Positions 1-41,205 are shown, counted from the stretch's first letter. The stretch is 64,000 nucleotides of DNA from an uncultured Dehalococcoidales bacterium (GCA_964545945.1 CAZJID010000002.1:1515-65514); one strand, 5' to 3'. Translations and numbers: made by a program. Notes: generated by a model from the sequence alone, not told the origin.

Positions 1-225
1 GAGCTGGTGGATGAAATCGTTAAAGTAACCAACGATGATGCCGGTGCCACAGCCAGAAGGTTAGCCAGGGAGGAGGGCATACTCGCTGGTATTTCTTCCG
101 GCGCTGCCGCCTGGGCGGCTTTAGAAGTTGCCAAAAGGCCGGAGAACAAGGGGAAATTGCTTGTGGTCATTTTGCCTGATACTGGCGAGCGTTATATATC
201 TACCTGGCTTTTTCAGGGGTTGTAA
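1..225 (+). CDS. Cysteine synthase family protein (CysK/CysM/MccA-like), C-terminal fragment; the 5' end lies outside the window
   Basis: Frame 1 is open from base 1, so the M at 7 is internal. The tail ...[13 protein letters not shown]...[19 protein letters not shown] matches the C-terminus of PLP-dependent O-acetylserine sulfhydrylases. Confidence 0.8.
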
Positions 226-248
226 TAATTTTATGACGGAGGTGGAAT

Positions 249-1391
249 ATGAGGTTTGAAACGTTGGCCATACACGCGGGGGAAAGGCCGGATAGGGCCT
301 TCGGTGCTGTCTCGACCCCTATATATCAGACATCTACCTTTGCCTTTGAGGACGTAGGTAAGACAAGAGGCTACGATTATTCTCGAACGGCCAATCCGAC
401 CAGAAAAGTTCTTGAGGATACCCTGGCCCAGCTCGAAGGGGGAATGGTGGGATTTGCTTTCGCTACCGGGATGGCGGCCGAGACAACGATAGTGCACATT
501 TTGAAGGCCGGTGACCATTTAATATCAGCCGACGACGTCTACGGAGGGACTTACAGGCTTTTTCGAGACGTAATGCCCGCGCTCGGCTTAGAAATCACCT
601 TTCTGAGAATGAACAGCAAACAGTCCCTCGAACAAGCCATAAAGCCAAATACCAGAATGATATGGATGGAGACACCATCGAATCCGTTGCTTAATATAAC
701 CGACATTGAGATGGTGGTGGATATAGCCAGAAAGCATAAAGTATTGACGGTAATAGATAACACCTTTGCCACGCCGTATTTTCTTCAACCTATCAAATTT
801 GGGGTTGACTTGGTTGTCCATTCCACTACCAAATACCTTAACGGGCATTGTGATGTCGTCGGCGGAGCCGTGGTCACTACTACGTCGGAATTATCCGATA
901 GAGTTCAATTTCTTCTAAATGCTATGGGTACCTGCGCCTCGCCTTTTGACTGCTGGCTGGTGCTGCGCGGAATTCAAACGTTGCCGCTACGGATGATGAA
1001 ACACGAGGAAAATGCCACGGCTGTAGCTGAATATCTTCAGAAACACAAGGTGGTCAGAAAAGTATATTTCCCCGGCATTAAAACTCATCCGGGCCATGAA
1101 ATCGCCAGAAGGCAGATGAAGGGCTTCGGCGGGATGGTTTCTTTTGAGTTACACGGCGGAAAGGAATCAGCTAATAAATTTCTTAAAAGATTGAATGTTT
1201 TTGAGGTAGCCGAATCACTGGGCGGTGCCGCTTCGCTGGCGGAGCATCCATCAACGATGAGCCATGCCTCTATGCCTGCCGATTATAGAAAGAAAATAGG
1301 CATTGGCGATGACCTGTTACGGTTATCGGTTGGACTGGAAAACATCGACGACTTGTTTGAGGATTTGGAACAGGCGCTCAACATCAAATAA
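249..1391 (+). CDS. Cys/Met-metabolism PLP-dependent enzyme (cystathionine gamma-synthase / gamma-lyase family, MetB/MccB-like)
   Basis: 380 aa. N-terminal TLAIHAG motif, PLP-lysine context VHSTTKYLNGH, and family-typical length. RBS GGAGG lies 6 nt upstream. It starts 23 nt after the cysK-like gene. Confidence 0.85.
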   Translation: MRFETLAIHAGERPDRAFGAVSTPIYQTSTFAFEDVGKTRGYDYSRTANPTRKVLEDTLAQLEGGMVGFAFATGMAAETTIVHILKAGDHLISADDVYGGTYRLFRDVMPALGLEITFLRMNSKQSLEQAIKPNTRMIWMETPSNPLLNITDIEMVVDIARKHKVLTVIDNTFATPYFLQPIKFGVDLVVHSTTKYLNGHCDVVGGAVVTTTSELSDRVQFLLNAMGTCASPFDCWLVLRGIQTLPLRMMKHEENATAVAEYLQKHKVVRKVYFPGIKTHPGHEIARRQMKGFGGMVSFELHGGKESANKFLKRLNVFEVAESLGGAASLAEHPSTMSHASMPADYRKKIGIGDDLLRLSVGLENIDDLFEDLEQALNIK

Positions 1392-1500
1392 AGGCTTAAT
1401 CCCCGAGATTCACCCGATTTTCACTTTCAATTCATAATATATTCACAGTCGACTGCTAACATTCTGGCGTTATGGGAACACAGACCAGGAAGGAGAGAAG

Positions 1501-2691
1501 ATGAAGCTATATCAGGTGGTCGTGAAAGACGTGATTAGAAGGAAGCGACGGGTCTTGTACGCCACTCTCGGTGTGGTTATAGGAACGGCGACGGTGGTCG
1601 GCATACTTACGGTTGCTCGCGCTGGCCAGGAGAGAATCTATAATCAGCTTGAGAAATACGGGCCAAATCTGGCAGTAGTACCGGCGATAAACAATCTCGA
1701 TATGAAGTTGGGCGACGTAAGTCTTGGCATGGTAACCGTTGGCGACAACTATGTTTCAGAAGATAAATTGCCGGAGATCAGGCAGATAGCCGATGGTGAA
1801 ATACGGAAGAAATTTAATATAGAAGACCAGGGAAACATTGCTACCATTGCTCCAGCTTTATATGTCAATACGAAAGTTGGAAACACATCGGTGATGGTGG
1901 TTGGCATAGACCCACAGGAGGAGATGAAAATAAAGACATGGTGGAGAGTTAATCAGGGGAAGTACCTGGAACGAAAAGACCAGGCCATAGTGGGTGCGAT
2001 CGCCGCAGAAATTTTGAATCTGAAAGTGGGAGACGTGGTCCCGCTTGATGGCACGAGTGTAACGGTCACCGGTATATTAGAAGAGACCGGTTCGAATGAC
2101 GACTATCAAATATTTGTTCCTATAGAAACCTTACAAAAAGCTGCTGGTAGGGAGGGGCTTGTGTCATCGATAGACATTCGAGCCCTGTGCAATGCCTGTC
2201 CGGTAGAAACCATAGCCGACAGCATTAATAAAGACATCCCCGGAGTCCGTGCGGTTGCCGTAAAACAGATTGCGGCTTCTGAAATGGGCATGATGGATAA
2301 GATGAATAAGTTCATGCTGACTCTGGCGGGAATCACTCTTGCTCTCGGCCTCTTTGGAGTGGTCAATACCATGATGACTTCGGTGAACGAGAGAATCAAA
2401 GATATCGGGATAATGAGGGCTGTAGGTGCGTCAAGAAGTCAAATAGTAAAAGCGTTTATTTATGAGGCCATCATAATCGGAATTATCGGAGGTATTTTAG
2501 GATACATGCTAGGCACGGTTCTAGCTTATTTGGTAGGGCCTCTGATATTTGAGGGTACGGCCGTTGCTCTTGTTCCCCAGTATTTTGCTCTGGCTCTGGT
2601 GCTGGCAGTCGCAGTAGCCGTGATTGCAACTGTATATCCGGCCTATCGAGCGACACAAATCAAAGTCGCAGATTCATTCAGGTCATTGTAA
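1501..2691 (+). CDS. ABC transporter permease, FtsX/MacB type (one N-terminal TM, ~230-aa extracytoplasmic domain, three C-terminal TMs)
   Basis: 396 aa. The topology is readable from hydrophobic segments. The C-terminal region ...ERIKDIGIMRAVGASRSQI... is typical of the FtsX-like permease family. RBS GGAAGGAGAG. Confidence 0.85.
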   Translation: MKLYQVVVKDVIRRKRRVLYATLGVVIGTATVVGILTVARAGQERIYNQLEKYGPNLAVVPAINNLDMKLGDVSLGMVTVGDNYVSEDKLPEIRQIADGEIRKKFNIEDQGNIATIAPALYVNTKVGNTSVMVVGIDPQEEMKIKTWWRVNQGKYLERKDQAIVGAIAAEILNLKVGDVVPLDGTSVTVTGILEETGSNDDYQIFVPIETLQKAAGREGLVSSIDIRALCNACPVETIADSINKDIPGVRAVAVKQIAASEMGMMDKMNKFMLTLAGITLALGLFGVVNTMMTSVNERIKDIGIMRAVGASRSQIVKAFIYEAIIIGIIGGILGYMLGTVLAYLVGPLIFEGTAVALVPQYFALALVLAVAVAVIATVYPAYRATQIKVADSFRSL

Positions 2692-2701
2692 AGGGGGTGA
2701 T

Positions 2702-3394
2702 ATGTTACAGCTAAAAGAAATATCAAAGGTTTATGGTGAGGGAGCGGGGCGAGTAGTTGCGCTGGATAAAATCTCATTCAGTGCAGACGAGGGGCATTTT
2801 GTAGCGGTGATGGGGCCTTCGGGAAGTGGCAAGAGTACATTTTTAAATATTATAGGCGGGTTGGACCGGCCTTCCAGTGGAGAAGTTCTTCTGGAGGGAG
2901 AGCGCATTGACAATCTGGGTGAAAACGATTTAGTCGATGTCAGGCGTGGGAAAATTGCCTATGTCTTTCAGCAGTACCATCTGCTGCCGTCACTTACCGC
3001 GCTCGAAAATGTGCTGCTGCCTCTGGTGTTTTGCGGTGCCAGTAGGGAGGAAAATAAGGCTTTAGAAATACTGGAGAAAGTCGGTCTGGGTAATAGAACA
3101 GGACATAAGCCGAGCCAGCTTAGCGGTGGTGAGCAACAGAGGGTAGCCATCGCCAGAGCTCTTGTTAGCAAGCCGTCGCTTATCCTGGCCGATGAACCAA
3201 CGGGCAACATGGACCGGAAAACCGGTGGTGAGATTATGCGATTGTTTGACCAACTCCATAACGAAGGCCATGGCATTATTATGGTTACTCACGACCCCGA
3301 GATAGCGGACTTCGCTAACTCCACGGTGTTTCTGCAAGATGGGAAGATCGTCAATGAAAGGCAAACCAAAATAAGGAGGCCACATAAAAGATGA
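2702..3394 (+). CDS. ABC transporter ATP-binding protein (MacB/LolD-like)
   Basis: Walker A GPSGSGKST, signature LSGGEQQR, Walker B LILADEPT. I moved the start to ATG 2702 (RBS AAGGGGGTGA at 2691-2700). The track start at 2624 would overlap the permease by 68 nt. Confidence 0.9.
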   Translation: MLQLKEISKVYGEGAGRVVALDKISFSADEGHFVAVMGPSGSGKSTFLNIIGGLDRPSSGEVLLEGERIDNLGENDLVDVRRGKIAYVFQQYHLLPSLTALENVLLPLVFCGASREENKALEILEKVGLGNRTGHKPSQLSGGEQQRVAIARALVSKPSLILADEPTGNMDRKTGGEIMRLFDQLHNEGHGIIMVTHDPEIADFANSTVFLQDGKIVNERQTKIRRPHKR

Positions 3395-3972
3395 GAAATA
3401 AGATCAGTCAGATTGTGCTTGTTCCTGTAGCCACTCTGGCCATTGCCGGGATCACGGTGTCTTGCAGTAGCTTGAATTACCTTGCGCCCGTGCCGGATAT
3501 TGAAGCAGGGAAGACAAAAACGTTTTTAGTGTCTGGACTATCTATAGATCCGGTAGAGGTTTATGCCCGGGACGAAGTAGTAATTACCGCCCGCGTCACA
3601 AATGTTACCACCATCGATGATACCTATGACGCCGAATTAAAAATAAACAATGATATAGAGGCTTCAGATAAAATACTGGTACCAGCGGGAAAGACTCAAA
3701 CTTTAACGTTTGCAATATTTAAAGACAAACCTGGAACTTATAAAGTAGCTCTGGGGCCGCTCGAGGGGCAGTTTGCAGTGGCAGAATCGACCGTGGCTGG
3801 GCCTGATAATCAGCTGCCTGCCGTACCTGCGCAGGCCGGCACCAGTTGCTGTGGAATTGGAGCGCAGGTATCGTCTGTTTCCCAAACCGGGGCTAGCTGC
3901 TGCGAGACAGGTGTTCAGAACAATCCAGCGACCCAGCCAAACCGTACCTACGGCTGCAGCTGTGGCAGATAG
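3391..3972 (+). CDS. Lipoprotein with a CARDB-like beta-sandwich domain and a 6-Cys C-terminal tail
   Basis: Signal peptide with Cys (...AGITVSCSS). The central segment resembles CARDB domains. The tail reads GTSCCGIGAQ...GASCCETG...YGCSCGR. The start ATG overlaps the ATPase stop (ATGA), which implies translational coupling. Confidence 0.7.
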   Translation: MRNKISQIVLVPVATLAIAGITVSCSSLNYLAPVPDIEAGKTKTFLVSGLSIDPVEVYARDEVVITARVTNVTTIDDTYDAELKINNDIEASDKILVPAGKTQTLTFAIFKDKPGTYKVALGPLEGQFAVAESTVAGPDNQLPAVPAQAGTSCCGIGAQVSSVSQTGASCCETGVQNNPATQPNRTYGCSCGR

Positions 3973-4085
3973 AAAATTGTTAATAAGGAGTTTGAAAAAA
4001 TGCGTATTTGAAACAGCTCGCGCGGTAGTTAGTAAGACTCAAATACTTGATATTGAATTGTAAATTATGAGGAGGTTAATAGATT

Positions 4086-4667
4086 ATGTTAAAGAAAATA
4101 GGAATAGGTTTCGCAGCTTTAATTCTGGCATTGATAGGTGTGTCATGTGCAAGTTCGACAGTAGTGCCTCAGACCACGGGAGCACAGCCGTCAGCATCTG
4201 CTCCTGCGCCGGCAGTGCCAGCATCGCCGGCAACAGAGGCAATCCAGGCGACGACTGAAAAGCCATCGGGCCCGATAAAAGCGAAGCTTATCGAAGCACA
4301 GATTGACGGTGATGCGGTCTCGATTCCCGTAAGCGATGTCGAGAGTGATTGGAACACGCAGTTTGCGATAGATTCGCCATCCGGTAAAATGAACTTTATG
4401 GCATACCTGTTAAAAAACAAGATTTACGTCAGGGCAGATGTCTGCCCCCCATGCCGGTCCATAGGCTATTCTCTGGACGGCAATACTCTGGTGTGCGACA
4501 GATGTGCCACTACTTTCAAAGCTGATACAGGCGATGGAGTCGCCGGAGCCTGCGTTGATTACCCCAAAGCATTAGTGCCGTACCAGATATCAAATGGTAA
4601 CATAGTAATGCAGCAGGCAGACCTTGTCACCGCCTACGAAAGCACTTTAAACCCCGGCTGGCCTTAG
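4086..4667 (+). CDS. Lipoprotein with a DUF2318-like Cys-rich (zinc-ribbon-like) domain
   Basis: Signal peptide with Cys (LALIGVSCAS) and a Pro/Ala-rich linker. The core YVRADVCPPCRSIGYSLDGNTLVCDRCATTF...GACVDYP resembles, from memory, the DUF2318 'Fe-S-containing protein' family. RBS GAGGAGG. Confidence 0.65.
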   Translation: MLKKIGIGFAALILALIGVSCASSTVVPQTTGAQPSASAPAPAVPASPATEAIQATTEKPSGPIKAKLIEAQIDGDAVSIPVSDVESDWNTQFAIDSPSGKMNFMAYLLKNKIYVRADVCPPCRSIGYSLDGNTLVCDRCATTFKADTGDGVAGACVDYPKALVPYQISNGNIVMQQADLVTAYESTLNPGWP

Positions 4668-4795
4668 AATCGTGAAGATGTGATTTTTCCCTTTCAAAAT
4701 TTAGGGCCGCTGCTTGCGTGTTTGGCAAATAGCAGGTATCTTATAACTATACGAACCGAACATTGAGGTAACTCCGACACAAAGAGAGGTGTAGT

Positions 4796-6028
4796 TTGGC
4801 GTATGCCACCGGTTTACGCTGCCGGAAATGCGGCCAGGAATACCCCTTACAACCGATAAGGGTCTGCGACTTTTGCCTTAGCCCGGTCGAGGTTATCTAC
4901 GACTATAAGGCCATGGCCCGTGGGCTGACCCGCCGGAAAATATCGGAAGGCCCGATTAGTATGTGGCGTTATCGCGACCTTTTACCGGTTGAAGGGGAGG
5001 ATATAATAGACATCGGCACCGGCTTCACTCCTCTGGTGAAAGCTGATAACCTGGGACGTAAGCTGGGGTTGGATAAGCTCTACATAAAGAATGACTGTCT
5101 GAATCCTAGCTACTCCTTCAAGGACAGGGCTGTTTCTGTTGCCGTAACTAGAGCCCGTGAGTTCGGTTTTGATACGGTAGCCTGTGCTTCCACCGGTAAT
5201 CTGGCTGCCAGTGTGGCCGCCCATGCGGCCAAGGCTAACATGAAAGCCTATGTTTTCGTCCCGGCCAATGTGGAACCTGGCAAACTGGTCGGCGTGGCCA
5301 TATATAATCCGAACCTGGTAACTGTTGACGGAAGCTATGACGACGTAAACCGCCTCTGTGCCGACGTAGCACAGAGATACAACTGGGGATTTATAAACAT
5401 AAACCTCCGGCCCTACTACGCGGAGGGCAGTAAAACGCTGGGGTTCGAAGTGGCCGAGCAGCTAGGATGGCAGCCGCCCGATTGTGTGGTGGCTCCAGCG
5501 GCTTCAGGCCTGCTTTTTACTCGTATCTGGAAGGGATTGCAAGAACTATCCACGTTAAAGCTCATGGGTCCGGTAAATACTCATATGTATCTTACTCAGG
5601 CTTCAGGCAGTTCGCCGATCGTCCATGCTTTTGAGGTCGGCACTCTTCATGTCCACCCGGTAACGCCGAAAACAATGGTGACCTCGATAGCCATCGGCAA
5701 TCCGGCAGACGGTTATTATGCTTTGATGGTGGCCAGACAGTCCGGTGGTGGGGCTTCCAGCGCTACCGACGGAGAAGCAATAGAAGGAATGAAATTGCTG
5801 GCACAGACTGAAGGTATTTTTGCTGAGGCCGCCGGTGGGGTTGTTATCGCTGGGCTTAAGAAGCTTGCTTCTGCCGGAGTCATAAAAAGGGATCAATTAA
5901 CGGTCGCATTTATCACAGGGGCAGGTCCCAGAACTCAGGAGATTGTAAAGGATATCGTCCATACTTACAACGTCCGACCAGATTTGAAATCATTCAATCA
6001 AGTGCTAGGACCTACAGGTTTGAAATAA
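4796..6028 (+). CDS. thrC: Threonine synthase family PLP enzyme with an N-terminal 4-Cys zinc ribbon
   Basis: 410 aa. PLP-lysine motif SYSFKDR and a GNLAAS segment. N-terminal CRKC...CDFC ribbon. TTG start at 4796 is preceded by AGAGAGGTG. The nearby ATG at 4801 is out of frame. Confidence 0.85.
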   Translation: MAYATGLRCRKCGQEYPLQPIRVCDFCLSPVEVIYDYKAMARGLTRRKISEGPISMWRYRDLLPVEGEDIIDIGTGFTPLVKADNLGRKLGLDKLYIKNDCLNPSYSFKDRAVSVAVTRAREFGFDTVACASTGNLAASVAAHAAKANMKAYVFVPANVEPGKLVGVAIYNPNLVTVDGSYDDVNRLCADVAQRYNWGFININLRPYYAEGSKTLGFEVAEQLGWQPPDCVVAPAASGLLFTRIWKGLQELSTLKLMGPVNTHMYLTQASGSSPIVHAFEVGTLHVHPVTPKTMVTSIAIGNPADGYYALMVARQSGGGASSATDGEAIEGMKLLAQTEGIFAEAAGGVVIAGLKKLASAGVIKRDQLTVAFITGAGPRTQEIVKDIVHTYNVRPDLKSFNQVLGPTGLK

Positions 6029-6076
6029 ACACGCCTATGAGTTAATCTTTATCACAGGTGAAGACAGGAGGACATA

Positions 6077-6319
6077 ATGGCTAAGCGACAGGTAATGTTC
6101 ACCTTTCCGCGTAAGCTAATCAAGGAACCCATAATTTATCAACTGTCTCGTAAATTTGAAATAGTGACTAACATACGTCGTGCGGACGTATCGGAGGATA
6201 GGGGCTGGGTGGTTCTGGAGTTGGAGGGTGGGGACAAGGAAATCGATGCCGGGATTGCCTGGGTCAAAGAGGAAGGGGTTAGAGTGGACCCTGTGGTTGG
6301 AGATATTATCGAAGGCTAG
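6077..6319 (+). CDS. Stand-alone NIL-domain protein (80 aa)
   Basis: The whole protein aligns by eye to the NIL / MetN-C2 domain pattern (...KEPIIYQLSRKFEIVTNIRRADV..GWVVLELEG...AWVKEEGVRVD). It ends ...GDIIEG. RBS AGGAGG. Confidence 0.75.
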   Translation: MAKRQVMFTFPRKLIKEPIIYQLSRKFEIVTNIRRADVSEDRGWVVLELEGGDKEIDAGIAWVKEEGVRVDPVVGDIIEG

Positions 6320-6322
6320 GAC

Positions 6323-7492
6323 ATGAGAAGAATATATCTGGACTACGCCGCGACCACACCGACACATCCTGACGTAATAAAGGCGATGTTGCCGTATTTT
6401 GATGAGTCGTTCGGTAACCCTTCCAGCATTCATTCGTATGGTCAGGAAGCGAGAGATGCCGTCGAACGCGCGCGAAGCAAAGTATCGGCTCTCATCGGGG
6501 CTAAAAACGAGGAGATTGTTTTTACAGGCAGCGGAACGGAGGCGGACAATTTTGCTCTGAAGGGAATAGCATTGTCTCGCCAGGGCAAAGGTAACCATAT
6601 TATCACCAGCTCTATCGAACATCACGCGGTTCTCGGGACGTGCAAATTTCTGGAGGGACAGGGGTTTTCGATTACTTATCTTCCGGTAGACGGATTCGGC
6701 ACGGTCAACCCCGCTGATGTTAAGAAAGCGCTTACCCACAAAACCATCCTGGTTTCCATCATGACCGCCAACAATGAATGCGGTACCATAGAACCCATAG
6801 CTGAAATAGGGGCTATTACCGGTGAGGCGGAGATTTATTTTCATTCCGATGCGGTGCAGGCCGTCGGACATATCCCCATAAATGTGCATGAATTCAAAGT
6901 TGACCTGCTGTCGATGTCGGCGCACAAACTTTACGGGCCTAAAGGCATGGGTGCCCTGTATATTAGAAAAGGCACCAGAATAAGCCAGTTTATGCACGGT
7001 GGAAGTCAGGAGAGAGGCAGGCGAGCCAGCACTGAGAACGTACCGGGCATCGTTGGTCTGGGAAAGGCCGCTGAGATAGCAAAGCAGGAAATGTCGGAAG
7101 AATCCGGCAAGTTGACTGCTCTTCGTGACCGGCTAATCGAAGGTATACTCACGGGTATCGAGTATACGCAGTTGAATGGCGACCCGGTTAAAAGGTTGCC
7201 CAACAATGTAAACGTCAGCATCAACTACGTCGAAGGTGAATCAGTCTTGTTAAACCTGGACCTGGAAGGAATCTGCGCCTCGACTGGCTCAGCATGCACC
7301 TCGGAGGACCTGGAACCGTCCCACGTTCTGGTGGCGATGGGACTACCGCATTTGCAGGCGCATAGCTCGTTGAGGTTCAGTCTGGGGAAATGGACTACCG
7401 AGGACGACATAAATAAGGTGCTGGATGTCCTGCCTGGAATAGTCTCCAAGCTCAGGGCTATGTCGCCCCTTATGAAGGCTGCTGGAAAGTAG
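6323..7492 (+). CDS. nifS: Cysteine desulfurase (class V aminotransferase, NifS/IscS type)
   Basis: 389 aa. Begins IYLDYAATTP, carries PLP-lysine SAHKLYGPKG and active-site loop SSGSACTS-like STGSACTSE. It starts 3 nt after the NIL gene stop. Confidence 0.9.
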   Translation: MRRIYLDYAATTPTHPDVIKAMLPYFDESFGNPSSIHSYGQEARDAVERARSKVSALIGAKNEEIVFTGSGTEADNFALKGIALSRQGKGNHIITSSIEHHAVLGTCKFLEGQGFSITYLPVDGFGTVNPADVKKALTHKTILVSIMTANNECGTIEPIAEIGAITGEAEIYFHSDAVQAVGHIPINVHEFKVDLLSMSAHKLYGPKGMGALYIRKGTRISQFMHGGSQERGRRASTENVPGIVGLGKAAEIAKQEMSEESGKLTALRDRLIEGILTGIEYTQLNGDPVKRLPNNVNVSINYVEGESVLLNLDLEGICASTGSACTSEDLEPSHVLVAMGLPHLQAHSSLRFSLGKWTTEDDINKVLDVLPGIVSKLRAMSPLMKAAGK

Positions 7493-7545
7493 CCGGCCTC
7501 AGTCTTTTTATATCTACTGACCTGTAAAGGAGGAGTGTGAACCCT

Positions 7546-8610
7546 ATGAGTTCGATGCCTGAAATAGGTAAGATTTCGCCTGATGTTTTTGAGAAGTTGA
7601 TATTGCCCCGCCTGGGTGCTAGGAACGACAAAATACTGGTAGGCCCGCAGAATGGCGTGGATGTCGGAATTGTGGAAATAGGTGACAAAGCGGTTTCATT
7701 TACCTGCGACCCGGTATTTATTGTGCCCGAATATGGATGGGAGAGGGCAGCTTGGTTTGCCATTCACATCATCGCCTCGGACTCGGTGACTGGAGGGCTC
7801 AAACCCAGCTTCTTGGCTATCGATCTGAACCTGCCAATGGAGATGACCCGTGAGCAACTGGAAACAGTGTGGAAGATCATGCACAGTGAATGCGTTAAAC
7901 TCGATATTTCAGTTATCACCGGACATACGGGAAGGTACGAGAACTGCCATTATCCAATGGTCGGTGGCGCGACGATGGTCGGCATTGGCAGTAAGGATGA
8001 GTACGTCACTCCCAAACTGGCTCGAGCTGGCGATAAGATAATCATTACCAAGGGCCCCGCCATTGAAGCCACCGGCATTTTTGCCACCATGTTTCCCGCT
8101 CTAATCGAACGTGAATTCGGTAAAGATTTTAATAAAAAAGCTCAGCAAATTTTCTATAAGATGTCGGTTGTCGATGACGCCATGACCGCAGTTGGTATCG
8201 GGGTAAGAGACAACGGTGTCACTGCCATGCACGATGCCACCGAGTGCGGTATATGGGGCGGACTGTACGAGATCGCACAGGCGGCCAACCTGGGGGTTAC
8301 GGTGGAAATGGAGAAGATAGTGGTCGAGGATTGCGTAACTGAAATATGCAAGTATTTTGGTATCGACCCCTATTCGTCCATCAGCGAGGGCACGCTTATC
8401 ATATCCTGCCGCGAGCATAAATCTCAGGCTATATTGGATGCTTTGTACGTGAAAGGTATTAAGGCTTCGGTTGTTGGTGAGTTGACCGAGCCAGGTCGGG
8501 GGATGGTACTGGTAAGAAGCGGGCGGGAAGGTGAGCTTAAACATCCGATAGTCGACCCGTTCTGGAGGGCGTTCTATGATGCTCTCCAGAAATATAGCGG
8601 TAACTCTTAA
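7546..8610 (+). CDS. AIR synthase-related protein (PurM/HypE/SelD/ThiL superfamily ATPase), function unknown
   Basis: About 354 aa. N-terminal ...GVDVGIVEIGDKAVSFTCDP and later ...SVITGHTGRY...MVGGATMVG are typical of PurM-superfamily N and C domains. ATG 7546 has better RBS spacing than the track GTG at 7537, so the start is uncertain by 9 nt. Confidence 0.8.
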   Translation: MSSMPEIGKISPDVFEKLILPRLGARNDKILVGPQNGVDVGIVEIGDKAVSFTCDPVFIVPEYGWERAAWFAIHIIASDSVTGGLKPSFLAIDLNLPMEMTREQLETVWKIMHSECVKLDISVITGHTGRYENCHYPMVGGATMVGIGSKDEYVTPKLARAGDKIIITKGPAIEATGIFATMFPALIEREFGKDFNKKAQQIFYKMSVVDDAMTAVGIGVRDNGVTAMHDATECGIWGGLYEIAQAANLGVTVEMEKIVVEDCVTEICKYFGIDPYSSISEGTLIISCREHKSQAILDALYVKGIKASVVGELTEPGRGMVLVRSGREGELKHPIVDPFWRAFYDALQKYSGNS

Positions 8611-8762
8611 GTTTTTCGACCGTAATTGTAAAGAATACTATAATTAGGACAAAATAAAGTATTTCGTCAATTTATTTTATATGTAGGGAAGATAAGTTTG
8701 TTGGCCAGAGTTATTAAGGTGGACGTTTAAGCGTAGGAGATAGCAAAAAGGTAGTGTGAGTT

Positions 8763-9551
8763 TTGGCTGAGGTAGAGCGTGTTCCCATACTGCGTTTTTC
8801 CGAGGATAATAAAGGGCGCGCCGATGACGTCGTTGTTCGGGAATCTCCGCTGACCATTATCCTGAATAATCAAGAGCTGGTGACCCTGCTTTGCACTCCG
8901 ATTCATCTTGATTACTTGGCAGTCGGTTTCCTGTCTTCTGAAGGGCTGCTTAAGAGCAAGGATGAAATCAACAAAATTACGGTGGATGAAAAGCGAGGCG
9001 TTATCCGCGTTGAGACCAAAGAGGAGACTAAGCAGGCAGTCGAGCTGGTGTTCAAGCGTCTGATTACGTCGGGCTGCGGGAGAGGTGCTTCCTTTTACAG
9101 CGCCGCCGATGCTACGAGACAAACTAAAGTGGAATCCAAAACAAGCATCTCGGCAGCTCAAGTTTTCGATCTGGTAAATGAGTTCCAGCACCGGTCACAG
9201 ATTTTCAGGACGACGGGTGGAGTCCACAGCGCTGCCTTATGCGATACCAGGAAAATTCTGATTTTCAGCGAAGATATAGGCCGCCACAATGCCATCGATA
9301 AGGTGTTCGGAGAATGTGTTTTGCAAAAGGTACCGACTGATGGACGGGTTATTCTAACCAGCGGACGGGTTTCTTCGGAGATATTGTTTAAGACGGCCAG
9401 AAGAAATATTCCTCTGCTTATCTCCAGGTCGGCGCCCACCGACATGGGTGTCAAATTGGCCAATGAATTGGGTGTTACGCTGATAGGTTTTGTCAGGGGT
9501 AAAAGGATGAATGTTTACGCTAACGACTGGAGGATAGTCAGCCATGGATAG
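8763..9551 (+). CDS. fdhD: Formate dehydrogenase accessory sulfurtransferase FdhD
   Basis: 262 aa. Family motifs: GFLSSEGL, SGCG(R)G, TGGVHSAAL, GRHNAIDK, LSGRVSSE. TTG 8763 is the first start after an in-frame stop. Confidence 0.85.
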   Translation: MAEVERVPILRFSEDNKGRADDVVVRESPLTIILNNQELVTLLCTPIHLDYLAVGFLSSEGLLKSKDEINKITVDEKRGVIRVETKEETKQAVELVFKRLITSGCGRGASFYSAADATRQTKVESKTSISAAQVFDLVNEFQHRSQIFRTTGGVHSAALCDTRKILIFSEDIGRHNAIDKVFGECVLQKVPTDGRVILTSGRVSSEILFKTARRNIPLLISRSAPTDMGVKLANELGVTLIGFVRGKRMNVYANDWRIVSHG

Positions 9552-10464
9552 ACAGCCGGAGCTAACCGGAAAAATTATGAAGTTGAAGAAAGAGCGCAAT
9601 GCCGTCATACTTGCCCATAACTATCAACTGGGTGAGATTCAAGATATAGCTGATTTCGTGGGGGATTCGCTCGACCTCAGCCAGAAGGCCGCCAAGACCG
9701 ATGCCGCCGTTATAGTTTTTTGCGGTGTTCATTTCATGGCGGAGACAGCCTCTATTCTTTGCCCAGATAAGACAGTACTACTTCCTGATGAACATGCGGG
9801 CTGCCCCATGGCCAACATGATAACTGCGCCACAGCTGCGTGACCGAAAAAAGGAGTATCCTGGGGCGCCGGTAGTTTGCTATATCAATTCATCGGCTGCG
9901 GTCAAGGCCGAATCGGATATTTGTTGTACCTCAGCCAACGCACTGGGGGTTGTGGAAAGCATAAACGCAGGTGAAATAATTTTTGTCCCCGACCAGTACC
10001 TCGGCCATTACGTCTCCACAAAAACCAGTAAAAAGCTGATCCTGTGGCCGGGCTTCTGTCCCACACACGCCAGGATAATGCCTGAGAATATCATAAAGCT
10101 AAGACATCAGTTTCCCGAGGCCAAGGTCGTAGTTCATCCCGAATGCAGGCCGGATGTCATAGCCTTGGCTGATGAGGTACTGAGCACCAGCGGGATGATA
10201 AAGTTTGCCGGAAGAGAAGACGTTAACGAGGTGATCGTGGGCACCGAAATGGGCATAATTCACCGACTAAATAAGGAGAACCCGGGGAAGAAGTTCATAC
10301 CGGTTTCGGAGCAGGCGATCTGCCCTAACATGAAGCTGATAACATTGGAGAAGGTCCTGTGGTCTCTGGAAGAGATGAGCCCCAAGGTAAAGGTGGCCGA
10401 AAAGGTTCGCGTAAAAGCCAAAGCCGCCGTGGACAGAATGCTGGCAGTAGGCAGGAGCGCATGA
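9544..10464 (+). CDS. nadA: Quinolinate synthase NadA
   Basis: 306 aa. ILAHNYQ, GVHFMAET, the CPM and HPEC cysteines, and the PNMK motif. The start overlaps the fdhD stop by 8 nt. Confidence 0.9.
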   Translation: MDRQPELTGKIMKLKKERNAVILAHNYQLGEIQDIADFVGDSLDLSQKAAKTDAAVIVFCGVHFMAETASILCPDKTVLLPDEHAGCPMANMITAPQLRDRKKEYPGAPVVCYINSSAAVKAESDICCTSANALGVVESINAGEIIFVPDQYLGHYVSTKTSKKLILWPGFCPTHARIMPENIIKLRHQFPEAKVVVHPECRPDVIALADEVLSTSGMIKFAGREDVNEVIVGTEMGIIHRLNKENPGKKFIPVSEQAICPNMKLITLEKVLWSLEEMSPKVKVAEKVRVKAKAAVDRMLAVGRSA

Positions 10465-10790
10465 AAGATACCGGCAAGATCGTCATCTTCGTTACTGCAA
10501 GCTCTGATGCCGAAGCCCATAAAATAGCCGACCTGCTACTGTCGAAGAGAAGGGCTGCCTGTGTAAACATAGTGCCCGCTGTGGAATCATCTTTCTGGTG
10601 GCAGGGGAAGTTAGATTCCGCCACGGAAAGCCTTCTCATCATTAAGACCAAAGCTTCTCTGTTACCTGAAATCGTTAAGCTGGTCAAAGCTGCGCATGGC
10701 TACGAAGTGCCCGAGATAGTTGCCATACCCATCATCGGCGGCAATGAAGATTACCTCAAATGGATAGATGCCGAAGTGACGGGTAGCTAA
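10461..10790 (+). CDS. cutA: Divalent-cation tolerance protein CutA
   Basis: I moved the start to ATG 10461, giving an ATGA overlap with the nadA stop. The sequence ...VIFVTASSDAEAHKIADLLLSKRRAACVNIVPAVESSFWWQGK...YEVPEI is CutA1-like. The 34-aa N-terminal extension in the track is a read-through inside nadA. Confidence 0.85.
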   Translation: MKDTGKIVIFVTASSDAEAHKIADLLLSKRRAACVNIVPAVESSFWWQGKLDSATESLLIIKTKASLLPEIVKLVKAAHGYEVPEIVAIPIIGGNEDYLKWIDAEVTGS

Positions 10791-10817
10791 GGCCCCCGCT
10801 TTAGTTCGTAGTGGTGA

Positions 10818-11822
10818 TTACTGTTTCGGCTGCCTCAGGAGATTCTGGTACAGGCTCCAGCTGACTATATAGGGAATGATATCGTAGCAGACTCTGAAAA
10901 GTATGACTGACAGTATGGCGGTGGTCAGGGGAATGCCCATCAGAGCGTAAATACCGGCCATTGAAGCTTCCTGTACGCCGAAGCCGCCCGGTACCATGGA
11001 GAGGTTGCCTGCCGTGATGCCTATGGTGAAACCTGTAATAAGAATATCGGGTTTTATGGTCTGCCCGAAAGCATAGAAGCAGAGCCACATAACAACCAGC
11101 ATGAAACCCCAGTAACCGACGATCAGTCCTAAAATAGTAAGAATGGCCGAAGGTCTGTTTCGTATAGCCCTCCATCCGAACGACAGGCTGTTATTGAAGG
11201 TGCTAAGAGAGAACATTATATCTTTATGCGCGACGAATTTGGATATCCGATTCAATGCACCTAATATGGGTGACCTTATCTTTCTGACAAAAATACTGAT
11301 GCTGGCCAGGATAATGAAAAAGGCCATAATTCCGGCGGAAAAGAGAGCGCCGGTTGATGCGCCTCCGTGTACAGTGCCGCTGATTACGAGATAGAGAAGG
11401 CCGACTAGTAGCAGAACCAGTAATACCAGCGCATTGAAATACGACTGATATATGGAAGCGGCGATAATCCGGGAAGTTTTTACACCGTAAGGTCGCAATA
11501 AGACAATCCGGATGGAGAGTCCCGCGGCGCCCGATAGAGCCAGTATGTTGTCCAACGCTATAGAGATATATCCTACCTCGAACAATTTCCATCGGCTGAC
11601 ATTGATTTGAAAGAGCCTGTTCGTTGCCACATAGGCCGACCCAAACGAAAAGTACGATATTACGGTAAACATTAGAGCTACGATGACCAGAAACCAGTTT
11701 GCGGCACCCATCACTCGGCGGACCTCTTGCCAGTCAAATGCAATTACAGCTGCACCGATTAGAAAAACGACTACGATGATGATAATTGAAACTTTCCGGC
11801 GGGACTGCATGTCTACATTCAT
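10818..11822 (-). CDS. Integral membrane protein, flippase-like / lysylphosphatidylglycerol-synthase TM-region family (UPF0104-like)
   Basis: 334 aa with about 8 hydrophobic helices. Family assignment is by overall pattern only. That it is coding is clear; the function is not. Confidence 0.6.
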   Translation of the reverse strand: MNVDMQSRRKVSIIIIVVVFLIGAAVIAFDWQEVRRVMGAANWFLVIVALMFTVISYFSFGSAYVATNRLFQINVSRWKLFEVGYISIALDNILALSGAAGLSIRIVLLRPYGVKTSRIIAASIYQSYFNALVLLVLLLVGLLYLVISGTVHGGASTGALFSAGIMAFFIILASISIFVRKIRSPILGALNRISKFVAHKDIMFSLSTFNNSLSFGWRAIRNRPSAILTILGLIVGYWGFMLVVMWLCFYAFGQTIKPDILITGFTIGITAGNLSMVPGGFGVQEASMAGIYALMGIPLTTAILSVILFRVCYDIIPYIVSWSLYQNLLRQPKQ

Positions 11823-11954
11823 ACTATAGCGTAGGGTAATGACAGTTCAAGTAATTTAAGCGGTTAAATGAAGCCTGACCGGGCCTGTTAGCCTGCATTG
11901 ATTTCTAATTGTGGTAAAATAGACTAAAATTTTGTTAGTCTGGTTAATATACAC

Positions 11955-12911
11955 ATGTCGACACCGTTTGTAAATGAACAAAAGAAGTTGCAGTTTAATT
12001 CGATTTCCTGTGGCAAATTGACCTGGGTTTATATAGAGAAGCCAAACCCACAGGACGTGCAATATCTTGCTGAACATTTCAAATTCAATCCTCTGAATCT
12101 GGATGACGTTTTAAGCCGTGTACAACGCCCGAAGATCGACGTATATCCGGACCACCTTTTCATTGTGCTGCATTTTCCGGTTTACAACAAAGAGAACAGA
12201 GTAACGACGCCGAGCGAAGTAGATATATTTATAGGTGAAACCTACATAGTTACTATTCATAAATCCGGTGACCTGAAACCTTTAGTTAAATTTTTTAACG
12301 AGTGCGATGTTGATGAGCGGACGTGTAAAGCGAATATGAGCAGGAGTTCGGGATTTCTCTTATATCATATACTGGACAGGCTGGTTAATTATTGTTTCCC
12401 CATTCTGGACAAAGTCGTCGACAATACGGAGAAGGTGGAGGACCTCATTTTTGCCAGGGCGGTTCCGGAGACAGTACGTGAAATATCGTTGATTCGCCGG
12501 GACCTCATCTCTTTCCGCCGCGTCATTCATCCTCAAGTTGCTGTATTCGAAGCGCTCGAGCGAGTGCAATACCCCTTCTTGAAAGAGGACCAGGATGTTT
12601 ACTTTGGCGATATAGCCGATCATATACGTAAGATTTGGGATAGCCTGGAAGACTGTAAGGAGGTAGTAGATGGTCTGGCTGATACCAGCAACTGGCTGAC
12701 TTCTCACCGGATTCAGGAAATAATGCGTGTGCTTACTATCGTTTTGACGATTATGGCACCGGCGACTCTTCTGGCCAGTATCTATGGCATGAATGTCCAT
12801 TTACCCGGCGGAGGTACGAAGGACTTTGTACCACTGCTAATAATCGTTATCATCATGCTCATGATTACGGGGTTCATGCTCTGGTTCTTTCACCGCAGAC
12901 GTTGGATCTAG
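11955..12911 (+). CDS. corA: Magnesium/cobalt transporter CorA
   Basis: 318 aa. C-terminal YGMNV signature followed by the second TM and a basic tail. Confidence 0.9.
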   Translation: MSTPFVNEQKKLQFNSISCGKLTWVYIEKPNPQDVQYLAEHFKFNPLNLDDVLSRVQRPKIDVYPDHLFIVLHFPVYNKENRVTTPSEVDIFIGETYIVTIHKSGDLKPLVKFFNECDVDERTCKANMSRSSGFLLYHILDRLVNYCFPILDKVVDNTEKVEDLIFARAVPETVREISLIRRDLISFRRVIHPQVAVFEALERVQYPFLKEDQDVYFGDIADHIRKIWDSLEDCKEVVDGLADTSNWLTSHRIQEIMRVLTIVLTIMAPATLLASIYGMNVHLPGGGTKDFVPLLIIVIIMLMITGFMLWFFHRRRWI

Positions 12912-24213: not shown

Positions 24214-26913
<2,700 letters not shown>

Positions 26914-38970: not shown

Positions 38971-39155
38971 TGGTTCCTTAGGCAATCACAAGAAAACGTT
39001 TTACATTTGATTAATAGTTTAGAATATGTTATCGAAAACTTCAATACCTGAATGCAGGTAGTCGACAAACTGCATTTAGTATACAGACCAGGCGCTTGCG
39101 AAAGTACTGGTGCTCGTATATACTTTGTCTACTTTGCCTTAAGGAGAGAATTGCC

Positions 39156-39551
39156 TTGAACACACGCATACGCAGGGCTTGTTTCGGGTTGGTTGCAGCT
39201 TTACTAATATTACAGAGTGCCTGCCTCGTTAATACCGGACTTGGAACCGATAAGACGCTGGGTATATCGGACATTGAAGCCAGTACTATGAACGTTTATC
39301 CTAGGGGCGCTTCCGATATAACGTGTGTTGTAACTGCGCCCCAGGGTGATTCAATCCAATATAAGTGGTCATCGGACGGCGGTATCCTGACAGGTGACGG
39401 GCCTAGTGTCCGCTGGCAGGCGCCGAATGATTACGGGGACTATCACGTGATGGTCACAGCCAGTGATAACAACGGAAACAGTGATCAAGCTGTTTTGACG
39501 CTGAGCGTGGTGCCGAGACCGGTCAGACACTGTTGCGGTAAAACGTTCTAA
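39156..39551 (+). CDS. Small lipoprotein with one PKD/Ig-like repeat and a C-terminal HCCGKTF
   Basis: The TTG 39156 start follows AAGGAGAG, and the track's upstream 20 aa do not look coding. Lipobox-like LILQSAC. The repeat ...QYKWSSDGGILTGDGPSVRWQAPNDYGDYHVMVTASDNNGN... is homologous to the repeats in the 40036 gene. Confidence 0.65.
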   Translation: MNTRIRRACFGLVAALLILQSACLVNTGLGTDKTLGISDIEASTMNVYPRGASDITCVVTAPQGDSIQYKWSSDGGILTGDGPSVRWQAPNDYGDYHVMVTASDNNGNSDQAVLTLSVVPRPVRHCCGKTF

Positions 39552-40035: not shown

Positions 40036-41205
40036 ATGAAACGTCATATCAGTGCCCTTAGTATCCTGTTGGTAATGTTCTCTGTTGCGGCAATAGCAGG
40101 AGTTGCTTGTGGAGGGGGGACAACCCAACCACCAGCACCGACCGGCAATCAACCGCCGGTAATTGTAAGTCTGGCAGCCGAAAGCCAGCAGCTTTACCCT
40201 TCGGGTCATACAGAGATTCAATGCGTTGCCCAGGATGCAGATAACGACCGCTTAAACTTTACATGGTCAGCCACAGGCGGCAATTTCAGCGGTTCCGGAC
40301 CAATCGTTGACTGGCAAGCCCCACCAAATTATGGTACGTATACGATAACAGCCGCGGTTGACGATGGCAAAGGTGGCTCAACGCAAGGCACTGTGGATAT
40401 AACTGTTGGGGCTAATCAATCACCAATTATCTCCAGCTTGACAGCTAACCCATCGGGGGTAATTAGCGGGGGCAGTGCTTTGATCACCTGTATAGCCAGC
40501 GACCCAGATGGTGACGTAGTAAGATATAGCTGGTCGGTGAGTGGAGGCAGCATCACAGGTGTCGGTAACAAAGTGACATGGCTTGCATCCGGTAAAAGTG
40601 GCAGCTATATCATTACTGTGGTTGTCAATGACGGAAAAGGCGGTGAAACAACGGGCAACGTAACAGTCACGGTGGGATCTACAATGAATACGGTGACTTT
40701 CCAGCCAGTAGCCCAAGAGACCGGCACTGTAGATTCAAACGGCGATAAAGACACTTCCCGGACGATAGCCGGCGATGATTCAAACGATGTAGGCTATCAT
40801 GCTTATTGGAGTTATGACGTCTTTAGCATGGCGGGTAAATACGTGCAAGATGCTCGGCTGAAGTTTACTACGAGGAGTGTAGTCGGCGACCCATTCTCCA
40901 GTGTAACCGGGCTTGGGGGGCTGCGATTTTGGAAAGTCAACTATGGTGATAAGTTGCCCAGTTTCAGCTACAGCGGGAGCAACCTAATTCATGTTCCTCT
41001 TCAGACCAAAGCGCCGACCGAGATAGATGTTACACAAGAGATGGTCAATATTGCCGCTGCTGCGAGTACCCGTTTCCAGGTTGAAGCTTTGTTCCCTAAC
41101 AGGACAAGTAACGGGAACCGTGTTGCTGAGTTTATTGATTGGTCAGATGTAGTCCTTGAAGTTACCTATTCGGAAAGCATACCGAACTCTCCCGATGGCT
41201 ACTAG
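40036..41205 (+). CDS. Lipoprotein with two tandem PKD/Ig-like repeats and an unknown ~180-aa C-terminal domain
   Basis: RBS AGGAGGTGA; signal peptide with Cys. There are two internal repeats: ...LNFTWSATGGNFSGSGPIVDWQAPPNYGTYTITAAVDDGKGG... and ...VRYSWSVSGGSITGVGNKVTWLASGKSGSYIITVVVNDGKGG... Confidence 0.7.
   Translation: MKRHISALSILLVMFSVAAIAGVACGGGTTQPPAPTGNQPPVIVSLAAESQQLYPSGHTEIQCVAQDADNDRLNFTWSATGGNFSGSGPIVDWQAPPNYGTYTITAAVDDGKGGSTQGTVDITVGANQSPIISSLTANPSGVISGGSALITCIASDPDGDVVRYSWSVSGGSITGVGNKVTWLASGKSGSYIITVVVNDGKGGETTGNVTVTVGSTMNTVTFQPVAQETGTVDSNGDKDTSRTIAGDDSNDVGYHAYWSYDVFSMAGKYVQDARLKFTTRSVVGDPFSSVTGLGGLRFWKVNYGDKLPSFSYSGSNLIHVPLQTKAPTEIDVTQEMVNIAAAASTRFQVEALFPNRTSNGNRVAEFIDWSDVVLEVTYSESIPNSPDGY

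Follow-up and report, generated by a model that had tools for sequence, protein, structure and literature searches.

Positions 1501-4667 of a 64,000-nucleotide stretch of DNA from an uncultured Dehalococcoidales bacterium (GCA_964545945.1 CAZJID010000002.1:1515-65514; hereafter the window, itself part of a 1.96-Mb, 94% complete host genome) encode four co-directional genes: a MacB/FtsX-type permease, an ATP-binding cassette (ABC) ATPase, and two lipoproteins, of which the first (lipoprotein A) ends in a cysteine-rich tail and the second (lipoprotein B) carries a DUF2318 domain. The reading that we favor, with some reserve, is that this cassette is related to the accessory proteins of the Campylobacter Fet system and forms a series of thiol sites at the cell surface which, powered by ATP, handles a thiophilic metal. 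Within that reading an Fe(II) or iron-sulfur (Fe-S) species and a Cu(I)-class metal appear about equally probable as the ligand. The relatives that we recovered were all labeled Dehalococcoidia or Chloroflexota, and close relatives come from peat and sediment.

The permease and its ATPase

The first gene (1501-2691, + strand) encodes a MacB/FtsX-type, or type VII, ABC permease of 396 aa that matches the Pfam families MacB_PCD (PF12704, 72.6 bits) and FtsX (PF02687, 76 bits). A hydropathy scan places the first transmembrane segment (TM1) at residues 18-36, followed by an ectodomain of ~234 aa and three C-terminal transmembrane segments, and together with the ATPase the protein presents the full set of type VII features: TM1, a MacB_PCD ectodomain, an FtsX domain and a partner nucleotide-binding domain. 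The permease falls below the NCBIfam equivalog cut-offs for MacB (70 vs 966 bits), lolCE (69 vs 362) and FtsX (34-48 vs 225-255). Its sole cysteines, Cys230 and Cys233, both lie in the ectodomain, where they form the sequence CNAC (2188-2199, +) within a motif RALCxxCP, and both are kept in 57/57 Dehalococcoidia permeases.

The ATPase gene (2702-3394, +; PF00005, 127 bits) starts 10 nt downstream of the permease gene, at the ATG of 2702 rather than at 2699 or 2624, and encodes 230 aa, as in its homologues. The protein is MacB/LolD/FtsE-like and without a sensor extension; it scores 194 bits as FetD-like, and 235 and 229 bits against the NCBIfam models of MacB and LolD, respectively, both under the equivalog cut-offs.

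As the Fet reference we took the cluster of E. coli plasmid pVR50B, a homologue listed in the published Fet survey (PMC6083913), in which the gene order is FTR1, P19, a membrane protein with DUF2318 and YHS domains, two FtsX permeases, an ATPase and a TlpA-type thioredoxin. In the host genome FetB and FetC both matched the window permease best, at 94 and 91 bits, compared with at most 50 bits for the five other FtsX-type permeases, and BLASTP aligned the window and Fet permeases over their full length with 27% identity (E=1e-35). On this homology the window permease is the specific counterpart of FetB/FetC.

The DUF2318 lipoprotein

Lipoprotein B (4086-4667, +; 193 aa) has a signal peptide with a lipobox (...IGVSC21, the cysteine being invariant in homologues) and continues through a low-complexity linker into a DUF2318/FtrD-like domain; its gene is separated from that of lipoprotein A by 113 nt (3973-4085). 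The DUF2318 assignment, made in an earlier sequence-only reading of the window, was confirmed by a hidden Markov model search, with PF10080 (DUF2318, now FtrD-like) matching residues 93-182 at 52 bits (cut-off 26.3). This is the one copy of PF10080 in the host genome, and it occurs in a protein with a single N-terminal hydrophobic segment and no YHS domain.

The domain contains the motif CPPC-x13-CDRC-x15-C (C120-C123, C137-C140 and C156; residues 120-156, nt 4443-4553), the five cysteines of which are invariant across 17 diverse homologues and align with cysteines of E. coli FetA. The spacing fits the motif CxxC-x13-CxxC-x14/15-C published for Cj 1651/FetA (PMC6083913). The DUF2318 region gave a weak match to a zinc-ribbon protein in the PDB and a match to Prok-RING, and for both lipoproteins sequence and profile searches of the PDB returned chance-level matches only. 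Both proteins show the hallmarks of bacterial lipoproteins, and lgt (two copies) and LspA are encoded in the genome. A tblastn search with the DUF2318 domain against the PLSDB plasmids returned nothing.

Comparison with Fet and other known systems

The Fet locus (cj1658-1665 / CJJ81176_1649-1656) and the cassette have in common the DUF2318 motif, an FtsX/MacB-type permease with a MacB_PCD domain, and a separate ABC ATPase, all in the same operon. They are also alike in having thiol-active accessory proteins in an adjacent slot, the thioredoxin-like ones in Dehalococcoidia echoing FetE/FetF. The sequence-only reading had connected the window genes with this Campylobacter locus and had described them as a stripped-down module; the FetB/FetC best matches and the FetA cysteine alignment bear out the connection, and the description is apt in that FTR1, P19, the membrane and YHS domains of the DUF2318 protein, and the second permease are all missing.

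In particular, Fet includes FTR1 (FetM) and P19 (FetP), whereas both FTR1 (PF03239) and P19 (PF10634) are absent from the 94%-complete host genome and from all 80 related loci of our survey. E. coli FetA is a 459-aa protein in which DUF2318 and YHS are joined to an 8-TM domain, whereas here DUF2318 is a free lipoprotein; and in place of the FetB + FetC pair, a heterodimer, the cassette and its related loci have a single permease gene. The ectodomain cysteines differ as well, with a full CxxC in the window permease, the first Cys only in FetB and neither in FetC. The accessory protein is a Cys-tailed beta-sandwich rather than a TlpA-type thioredoxin (FetE/FetF), control would be through the Rrf2 operator and the direct-repeat promoter in place of a Fur box, and the setting in a Cys/Met/Fe-S operon is unlike that of Fet.

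Deletion of fetA, fetB, fetC or fetD in C. jejuni causes iron-dependent growth defects, the biochemical role of these genes being unknown, and in the Campylobacter model the redox partners FetE/F are fed via FetA and FetBCD (PMC10783030). The Fet survey covers six phyla, Chloroflexi not among them, and found DUF2318 almost always in FTR1/P19 clusters (PMC6083913). A further setting for the domain is the CsoR copper regulon of gut Firmicutes, which includes DUF2318 membrane proteins as well as proteins in which DUF2318 is fused to HMA and DsbD_2 domains (PMC4938975). Those proteins share with lipoprotein B the extracytoplasmic Cys-rich domain and the setting in metal homeostasis, but the cassette lacks CsoR, HMA and DsbD_2 and has a MacB-type partner instead.

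With MacAB-TolC, LolCDE, FtsEX and HrtBA the cassette shares a cytoplasmic ATPase and a permease of four transmembrane segments, the first two of which flank a large ectodomain, but it differs from them in the lack of a membrane-fusion protein, in its Cys-rich lipoprotein partners and in the ectodomain CxxC. Type VII ABC transporters are known to work through mechanotransmission on partners or substrates at the outer face of the membrane.

The Cys-tail lipoprotein

Lipoprotein A (3391-3972, +; 193 aa) consists of a signal peptide, a lipobox (...ITVSC25, with Cys25 invariant among homologues), a beta-sandwich and a disordered Cys-rich tail, and its start codon overlaps the ATPase stop codon as ATGA (3391-3394). 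The tail (residues 148-193, nt 3832-3969) contains six cysteines, Cys153/154 in SCCG, Cys170/171 in SCCE and Cys189/191 in GCSCGR. The ATGA overlap and the cysteine motifs of the tail, like the permease, the ATPase, the 113-nt gap and the CPPC...CDRC...C motif, had been read correctly from the sequence.

We found 71 homologues of lipoprotein A, all on Dehalococcoidia-type metagenome contigs. That relatives might have kept the Cys-rich tail was a further point raised by the sequence-only reading, and all 68 aligned homologues do have CC or CxC inside their last 8 residues, while their beta-sandwich core is free of cysteine in 68/68. At least 64 of the 68 have Arg as the last residue, the exceptions among the endings listed being two CCGY. 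The usual endings are GCGCCGR and GCCGR, compared with GCSCGR in the window copy; upstream of the end there are from none to four SCCG-type repeats, and the number of CC repeats per tail ranges from 1 to 5. In the homologue from locus L003 the tail comprises four near-perfect peptide repeats, and in the window copy Tandem Repeats Finder detected no tandem repeat in the DNA that encodes the tail.

The protein had no Pfam match (E<=0.1) and no NCBIfam match. An AlphaFold2 model built without an alignment had a predicted local distance difference test score (pLDDT) of 37.5, and we therefore used the model from the 68-homologue alignment, in which residues 43-132 (nt 3517-3786) form an Ig/Fn3-like beta-sandwich at pLDDT >90, disorder sets in from ~residue 138 and the tail has pLDDT <50. 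The top PDB matches of the sandwich in Foldseek were the Fn3-like domains of GH3 glycosidases. The CARDB-like fold that had been suggested for this protein found no match in the window copy itself; among the 68 family members 13 reached CARDB (PF07705) at E<1 and 32 reached fn3_5, with one relative (P0194) scoring 22.7, exactly the CARDB cut-off. CARDB is thus only a weak relative. The sandwich is a common building block, its profile being matched by 7129 representative proteins at E<=0.001, many of which carry it in tandem, in up to 19 copies. It serves as a repeat unit in surface proteins of great length, one of them having 2602 aa and 19 copies (P0196 is among the matches).

Flexible C-terminal peptides with one or two cysteines close to the carboxyl end are familiar from large thioredoxin reductases (SCCS/GCUG), MerA (a vicinal pair) and SoxY (GGCGG-COOH), in which they ferry electrons, Hg(II) or sulfur from one site to another. 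The tail of lipoprotein A has no homology to these; unlike them it is attached to an Ig-like lipoprotein, comes in 1-5 repeats and nearly always ends in Arg.

Distribution and the accessory slot

To survey the cassette we scanned one genome per species and annotated the resulting 80 loci with the window proteins as queries; gene calls in these loci are the longest open reading frames, and some starts may be wrong. All 80 are from Dehalococcoidia or Chloroflexota metagenome-assembled genomes except two contigs, L056 and L079, binned as 'ANME-2 cluster archaeon'. Both carry permease-ATPase-DUF2318, through possible mis-binning or lateral transfer, and among all the permeases that of L079 comes closest to E. 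coli FetB (146 bits).

In 49 of the 52 loci with enough upstream sequence the permease and ATPase genes stand directly 5' of DUF2318, while the accessory slot is occupied in just 28 loci and by proteins of different kinds. A CC-tail beta-sandwich protein occurs in 15 loci, a thioredoxin-like domain with CxxS and FCGCC, joined to a beta-sandwich, in 10, and extra DUF2318 paralogues ending in ...SCCR, ...RCCTR or ...SCCGP in 7; in 6 loci PKD/Big_9 proteins ending in VVPCSACxFG follow DUF2318. Given that the slot is variable and the trio constant, the conserved unit is the permease, the ATPase and DUF2318, and the tail lipoprotein is one among several interchangeable proteins that bear a pair of cysteines at the C-terminus. 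Identities to the orthologues in locus L001 are 87% for the permease, 83% for the ATPase, 76% for the DUF2318 lipoprotein and 66% for the tail lipoprotein, compared with 84-91% for the biosynthetic enzymes of the operon, so that the permease is as well conserved as these.

In the thioredoxin-like accessory proteins (L005:6479-7378, L014, L025, L036, L053, L054, L057 and others), often fused to the beta-sandwich found in lipoprotein A, the second Cys of the CxxC is lost, giving sites of the GCSPS, GCSSR and GCSxS types, and an invariant FCGCC follows ~37 residues past the reduced CxxC site. An ordinary CxxC is retained in one paralogue of L015 and in E. coli FetE. The CxxS/FCGCC proteins look like an undescribed variant of the TlpA family.

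These proteins bear directly on one alternative, namely that the cassette transports no metal and is a thiol-disulfide relay supplying or removing reducing equivalents at the surface, as proposed for FetBCD/FetA/FetEF, with the vicinal-Cys arm as a redox shuttle comparable to the SCCS/GCUG arm of the large thioredoxin reductases. The presence of thioredoxin-like accessories in the same slot in 10 loci, the CxxC on both permease and DUF2318, and the Campylobacter model with its FetE/F redox partners (PMC10783030) all speak for such a relay. However, accessories that are without the resolving Cys (CxxS) and have gained FCGCC are atypical of a simple oxidoreductase, the cassette is without a CcdA/DsbD-type electron conduit or a source of reductant, and the CPxC...CxxC spacing of DUF2318 resembles a pair of metal-binding knuckles, in line with its weak zinc-ribbon match and its match to Prok-RING. 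We consider a pure relay unlikely.

Operon context

The cassette is embedded in an operon of the order Rrf2 - cysK - CGS - [permease - ATPase - lipoprotein A - DUF2318] - ThrC-like - NIL - NifS - PurM/HypE-like - FdhD - NadA - CutA, which recurs among relatives, in some with cysE and NifU added. Of the upstream genes, cysK (1-225) opens the window, the Rrf2 regulator lying farther 5' on contig C2, outside the window, and a cystathionine gamma-synthase/lyase family gene (CGS; 249-1391, +; PF01053, 520 bits) follows, which is the immediate upstream neighbor of the permease in 17 loci. Directly downstream of the cassette (4796-8610, +) are the genes for a ThrC-like pyridoxal phosphate enzyme, an NIL protein, NifS (587 bits against an equivalog cut-off of 531) and a PurM/HypE-like protein. 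In most loci the ThrC-like enzyme, which has an N-terminal zinc ribbon, the 80-aa NIL protein, NifS and the PurM/HypE-like protein co-travel. A consensus scan of the intergenic gaps showed no terminator-like site, and an Rfam scan of window positions 1-12000 found no RNA family.

This setting is not universal. Genes of the cys type are found upstream of the cassette in 22/52 loci and an Rrf2 gene in 24/52, and NifS or NifU is found downstream in 23/58. In six loci Rrf2 stands directly 5' of the permease, and five of these (L059, L060, L062, L069 and L072) have only DUF2318 copies after the ATPase, while locus L089 has a free-standing four-gene copy of the module. Conversely, genome G181 (L099), from the same family, has CysE-CGS-ThrC-like-NIL-NifS with 14 nt between CGS and the ThrC-like gene and no cassette, and thus offers a natural empty-site comparison. 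Of 301 genomes sampled across the class, 29 (~10%) contain DUF2318. Given the low frequency of DUF2318 and the same operon without it in G181, the four genes form an optional cassette that lies outside the biosynthetic pathway itself.

It was nonetheless reasonable to consider that the cassette captures sulfur, its surface cysteines carrying sulfane sulfur (persulfide/polysulfide) or reducing external disulfides for CysK and the ThrC-like enzyme, with the C-terminal arm swinging as the Cys arm of SoxY does. In 15-17 loci cysK/CGS on one side and the ThrC-like/NIL genes on the other flank the cassette, the top NCBIfam match of the regulator is CymR (127 bits), and the NIR_SIR sulfite reductase is absent from the genome, so that reduced sulfur must be acquired. 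The flexible tail ending G-C-x-C-G-R also recalls the C-terminal GGCGG of SoxY. On the other hand, H2S crosses membranes freely and a machine is not obviously needed; a rhodanese, Sud or Sox-type partner is absent; in several lineages the module travels with Rrf2 alone or with NifS, in the absence of cys genes, and the operon of G181 dispenses with the module altogether; and the relatives of DUF2318 elsewhere reside in iron or copper loci, not in those of sulfur oxidation or assimilation. Sulfur capture is therefore, in our estimate, a minor contender.

Regulation

The Rrf2 regulator contains a C-x7-C-x5-C triad, and its scores against the NCBIfam models of CymR (127 bits) and IscR (100 bits) are both below cut-off. 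Its operator is a conserved palindrome, TGTTGAC-N7-GTCAACA (C2:312-336, ~1.2 kb before window base 1), that directly follows the -10 of a promoter TTGACA-17-TATACT. The operator lies 31-43 nt 5' of the Rrf2 start codon in 21 of the 24 Dehalococcoidia loci examined and has at least 10/14 consensus positions in 23 of the 24. A position weight matrix search returned the operon's own site as the top match genome-wide, this site, which reads TGTTGAT-N7-CTATACA, itself being part of the matrix; the next-best matches are inside genes or before unrelated genes. The idea of a second Rrf2 operator inside the operon was dropped, as the sole strong site in the genome is the one upstream of Rrf2.

The 109-nt gap 5' of the permease holds what appears to be a promoter of the cassette's own (1409-1462, +), comprising four TTCAY direct repeats with an 11-bp period (1409, 1420, 1431 and 1442) and a -10-like TAACAT (1457-1462), and the repeats are kept in the same gap of the nearest relatives, L001, L003 and L007-L011. 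Thus the cassette is predicted to be under double control, by the operon-heading Rrf2 operator and by its own direct-repeat promoter. Three consecutive TTCAY repeats occur at 3 loci in the 1.96-Mb genome, against ~0.03 expected. The second locus (C3:21978-25793, -) is a MacB-type operon of a 429-aa permease, an ATPase, a lipoprotein (174 aa, Cys-free and thioredoxin-fold-like) and a 396-aa permease; the third (C65:8914-10134, -) encodes a secreted subtilisin-like protease. Together the three repeat-bearing units look like a small envelope regulon. We rejected a Pho-box reading of the repeats, given that they occur on no pst or pho genes. As for a cognate response regulator, none of 5 OmpR-family genes (0/5) has the repeats in its own promoter.

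In L015, L045 and L076 homologous repeats (four copies with an 11-bp period, ATTCTAA) precede the permease, and immediately before them lies an OmpR-family two-component system whose best NCBIfam models are those of the heavy-metal systems, cztR/copR and cztS/copS, below cut-off. That a repeat promoter is common to the cassette, a second MacB-type operon and a secreted subtilisin-like protease, and that in four loci the module is flanked by OmpR-family two-component systems, would suit a general pump for envelope stress or peptide efflux, of the type of MacB, YknYZ or Bce, with the lipoproteins as unrelated passengers, but with DUF2318 following this permease type in 49/52 loci, an invariant CxxC on its ectodomain, a permease that is FetB/C-like and unlike the genome's other FtsX permeases, and flanking kinases with a ~150-aa sensor ectodomain unlike Bce-type intramembrane sensors, we regard this as very improbable.

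Proposed mechanism and candidate ligands

For the Fet-accessory-type chain of thiol sites, the analysis shows the homology to the DUF2318 domain of FetA and to FetB, FetC and FetD, the conservation of every cysteine site, the synteny, the behavior of the genes as a cassette and two promoter elements, whereas we infer that the cysteines bind a metal, in which order and direction it travels, and what the ligand is. Each part of the module that faces outward carries cysteines, and the invariant ectodomain CxxC and the interchangeable Cys arms suggest that the module works through a chain of thiol sites. The host would be a single-membrane bacterium in which a homodimeric MacB-type permease, driven by the ATPase, cycles its CxxC-bearing ectodomain. 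Tethered beside it would be the DUF2318 lipoprotein, with a zinc-ribbon/rubredoxin-like four-Cys site and a fifth Cys, and the second lipoprotein, a beta-sandwich with a flexible vicinal-Cys arm ending in ...C(x)CGR. The arm may catch a thiophilic metal and hand it to DUF2318 and then to the CxxC of the permease, the metal being moved or released through ATP-driven mechanotransmission.

The ligand might be an Fe(II)/Fe-S species that feeds the co-transcribed Fe-S/cysteine machinery; alternatively it might be a metal of the Cu(I) class, to which that machinery is vulnerable. The former is hinted at by the only known phenotype of the homologues, which is iron-related (PMC10783030), and by the presence in the operon of NifS (in relatives also NifU) behind an Fe-S-type Rrf2 with its C-x7-C-x5-C triad and conserved operator. 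The hints for the latter are the DUF2318 proteins of the CsoR regulon (PMC4938975), the heavy-metal-like two-component systems, the YHS domain of FetA, the vicinal CC, CxC and CxxC sites, which are classical ligands of soft metals, and the adjacency of CopA: in L035 (1401-3881) and L047 (648-3104) a CopA-type P1B ATPase with two HMA domains (TIGR01511, 570 vs 397 bits) lies directly 3' of DUF2318 on the same strand.

Several observations weigh against metal handling by such a chain. The adjacency of CopA is confined to 2-3 loci, the heavy-metal matches of the two-component systems are under the NCBIfam cut-offs with other families scoring close behind, and the shared direct-repeat promoter suits a general envelope regulon no less than a metal regulon. 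The DUF2318 domain, for which a metal site is proposed, found no relative in the PDB by sequence or profile search. The occurrence of the module in ~10% of Dehalococcoidia genomes means that it is not integral to Cys or Fe-S synthesis, and given that FeoB is present in the genome, a role in iron supply is not obviously needed. The module is also without a recognizable channel, and there is no FTR1 in the genome. Finally, MacB-type transporters are known solely for expulsion or mechanotransmission, none of them being known to import, which argues against simple import.

A bolder version of the metal-handling chain is that it harvests minerals or sulfide complexes, the flexible vicinal-Cys tails serving as 'fishing lines' at the cell surface that strip Fe-S or sulfide-bound trace metal from a sulfidic environment and pass it via DUF2318 and the CxxC of the MacB-type motor inward, to the co-transcribed machinery for cysteine and Fe-S clusters. 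We regard this version as a long shot.

Other CC motifs and PKD proteins in the genome

The sequence-only reading had also remarked on vicinal cysteines in two other exported proteins of the window, HCCGKTF and VCCG, as unusual. Both motifs are present, the former in a PKD-like lipoprotein (39096-39551, +; PKD 24.4 bits) ending in RHCCGKTF and the latter in a 565-aa membrane-fusion protein. A phmmer search with the module-linked PKD protein of L042 matched the PKD/Big_9 lipoproteins at window positions 40036-41205 (141 bits) and 39096-39551 (66 bits); given this homology of the window PKD genes to module-linked PKD proteins, the remark on HCCGKTF gains some substance, while VCCG showed no link to the module. 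A third PKD/Big_9 copy in the genome (C43:11098-11799) ends in VLCCGKG. Genome-wide there are 178 CC dipeptides compared with 111 expected, and since this enrichment is just ~1.6-fold we dropped CC in exported proteins as a genome-wide oddity. An 899-aa protein (24214-26913, -) ends in CPCGSGKKYKHCCGR, by eye a putative SecA zinc-binding C-terminus, which would explain one of the ten C-terminal CC proteins in the genome.

Significance

FetABCDEF is required for iron-limited growth of Campylobacter and is carried by many pathogens, and the roles of DUF2318 and of the FtsX-type transporter in it are unsolved. A literature search did not find a paper on a variant of the Fet-accessory type in Dehalococcoidia. 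The cassette described here is the Fet accessory system at its minimum, with one permease, one ATPase and one soluble, lipid-anchored DUF2318 protein, and given that it occurs without the FTR1 channel and P19, the trio has a function of its own. Its value is that of a minimal model of the Fet accessory proteins with soluble domains amenable to metal and redox analysis, and the Rrf2-controlled Cys/Met/Fe-S operon provides a testable physiological frame. Were the harvesting version to prove true, it would be the first uptake-directed role of a type VII ABC transporter, and would explain the function of FetA-D in pathogens.

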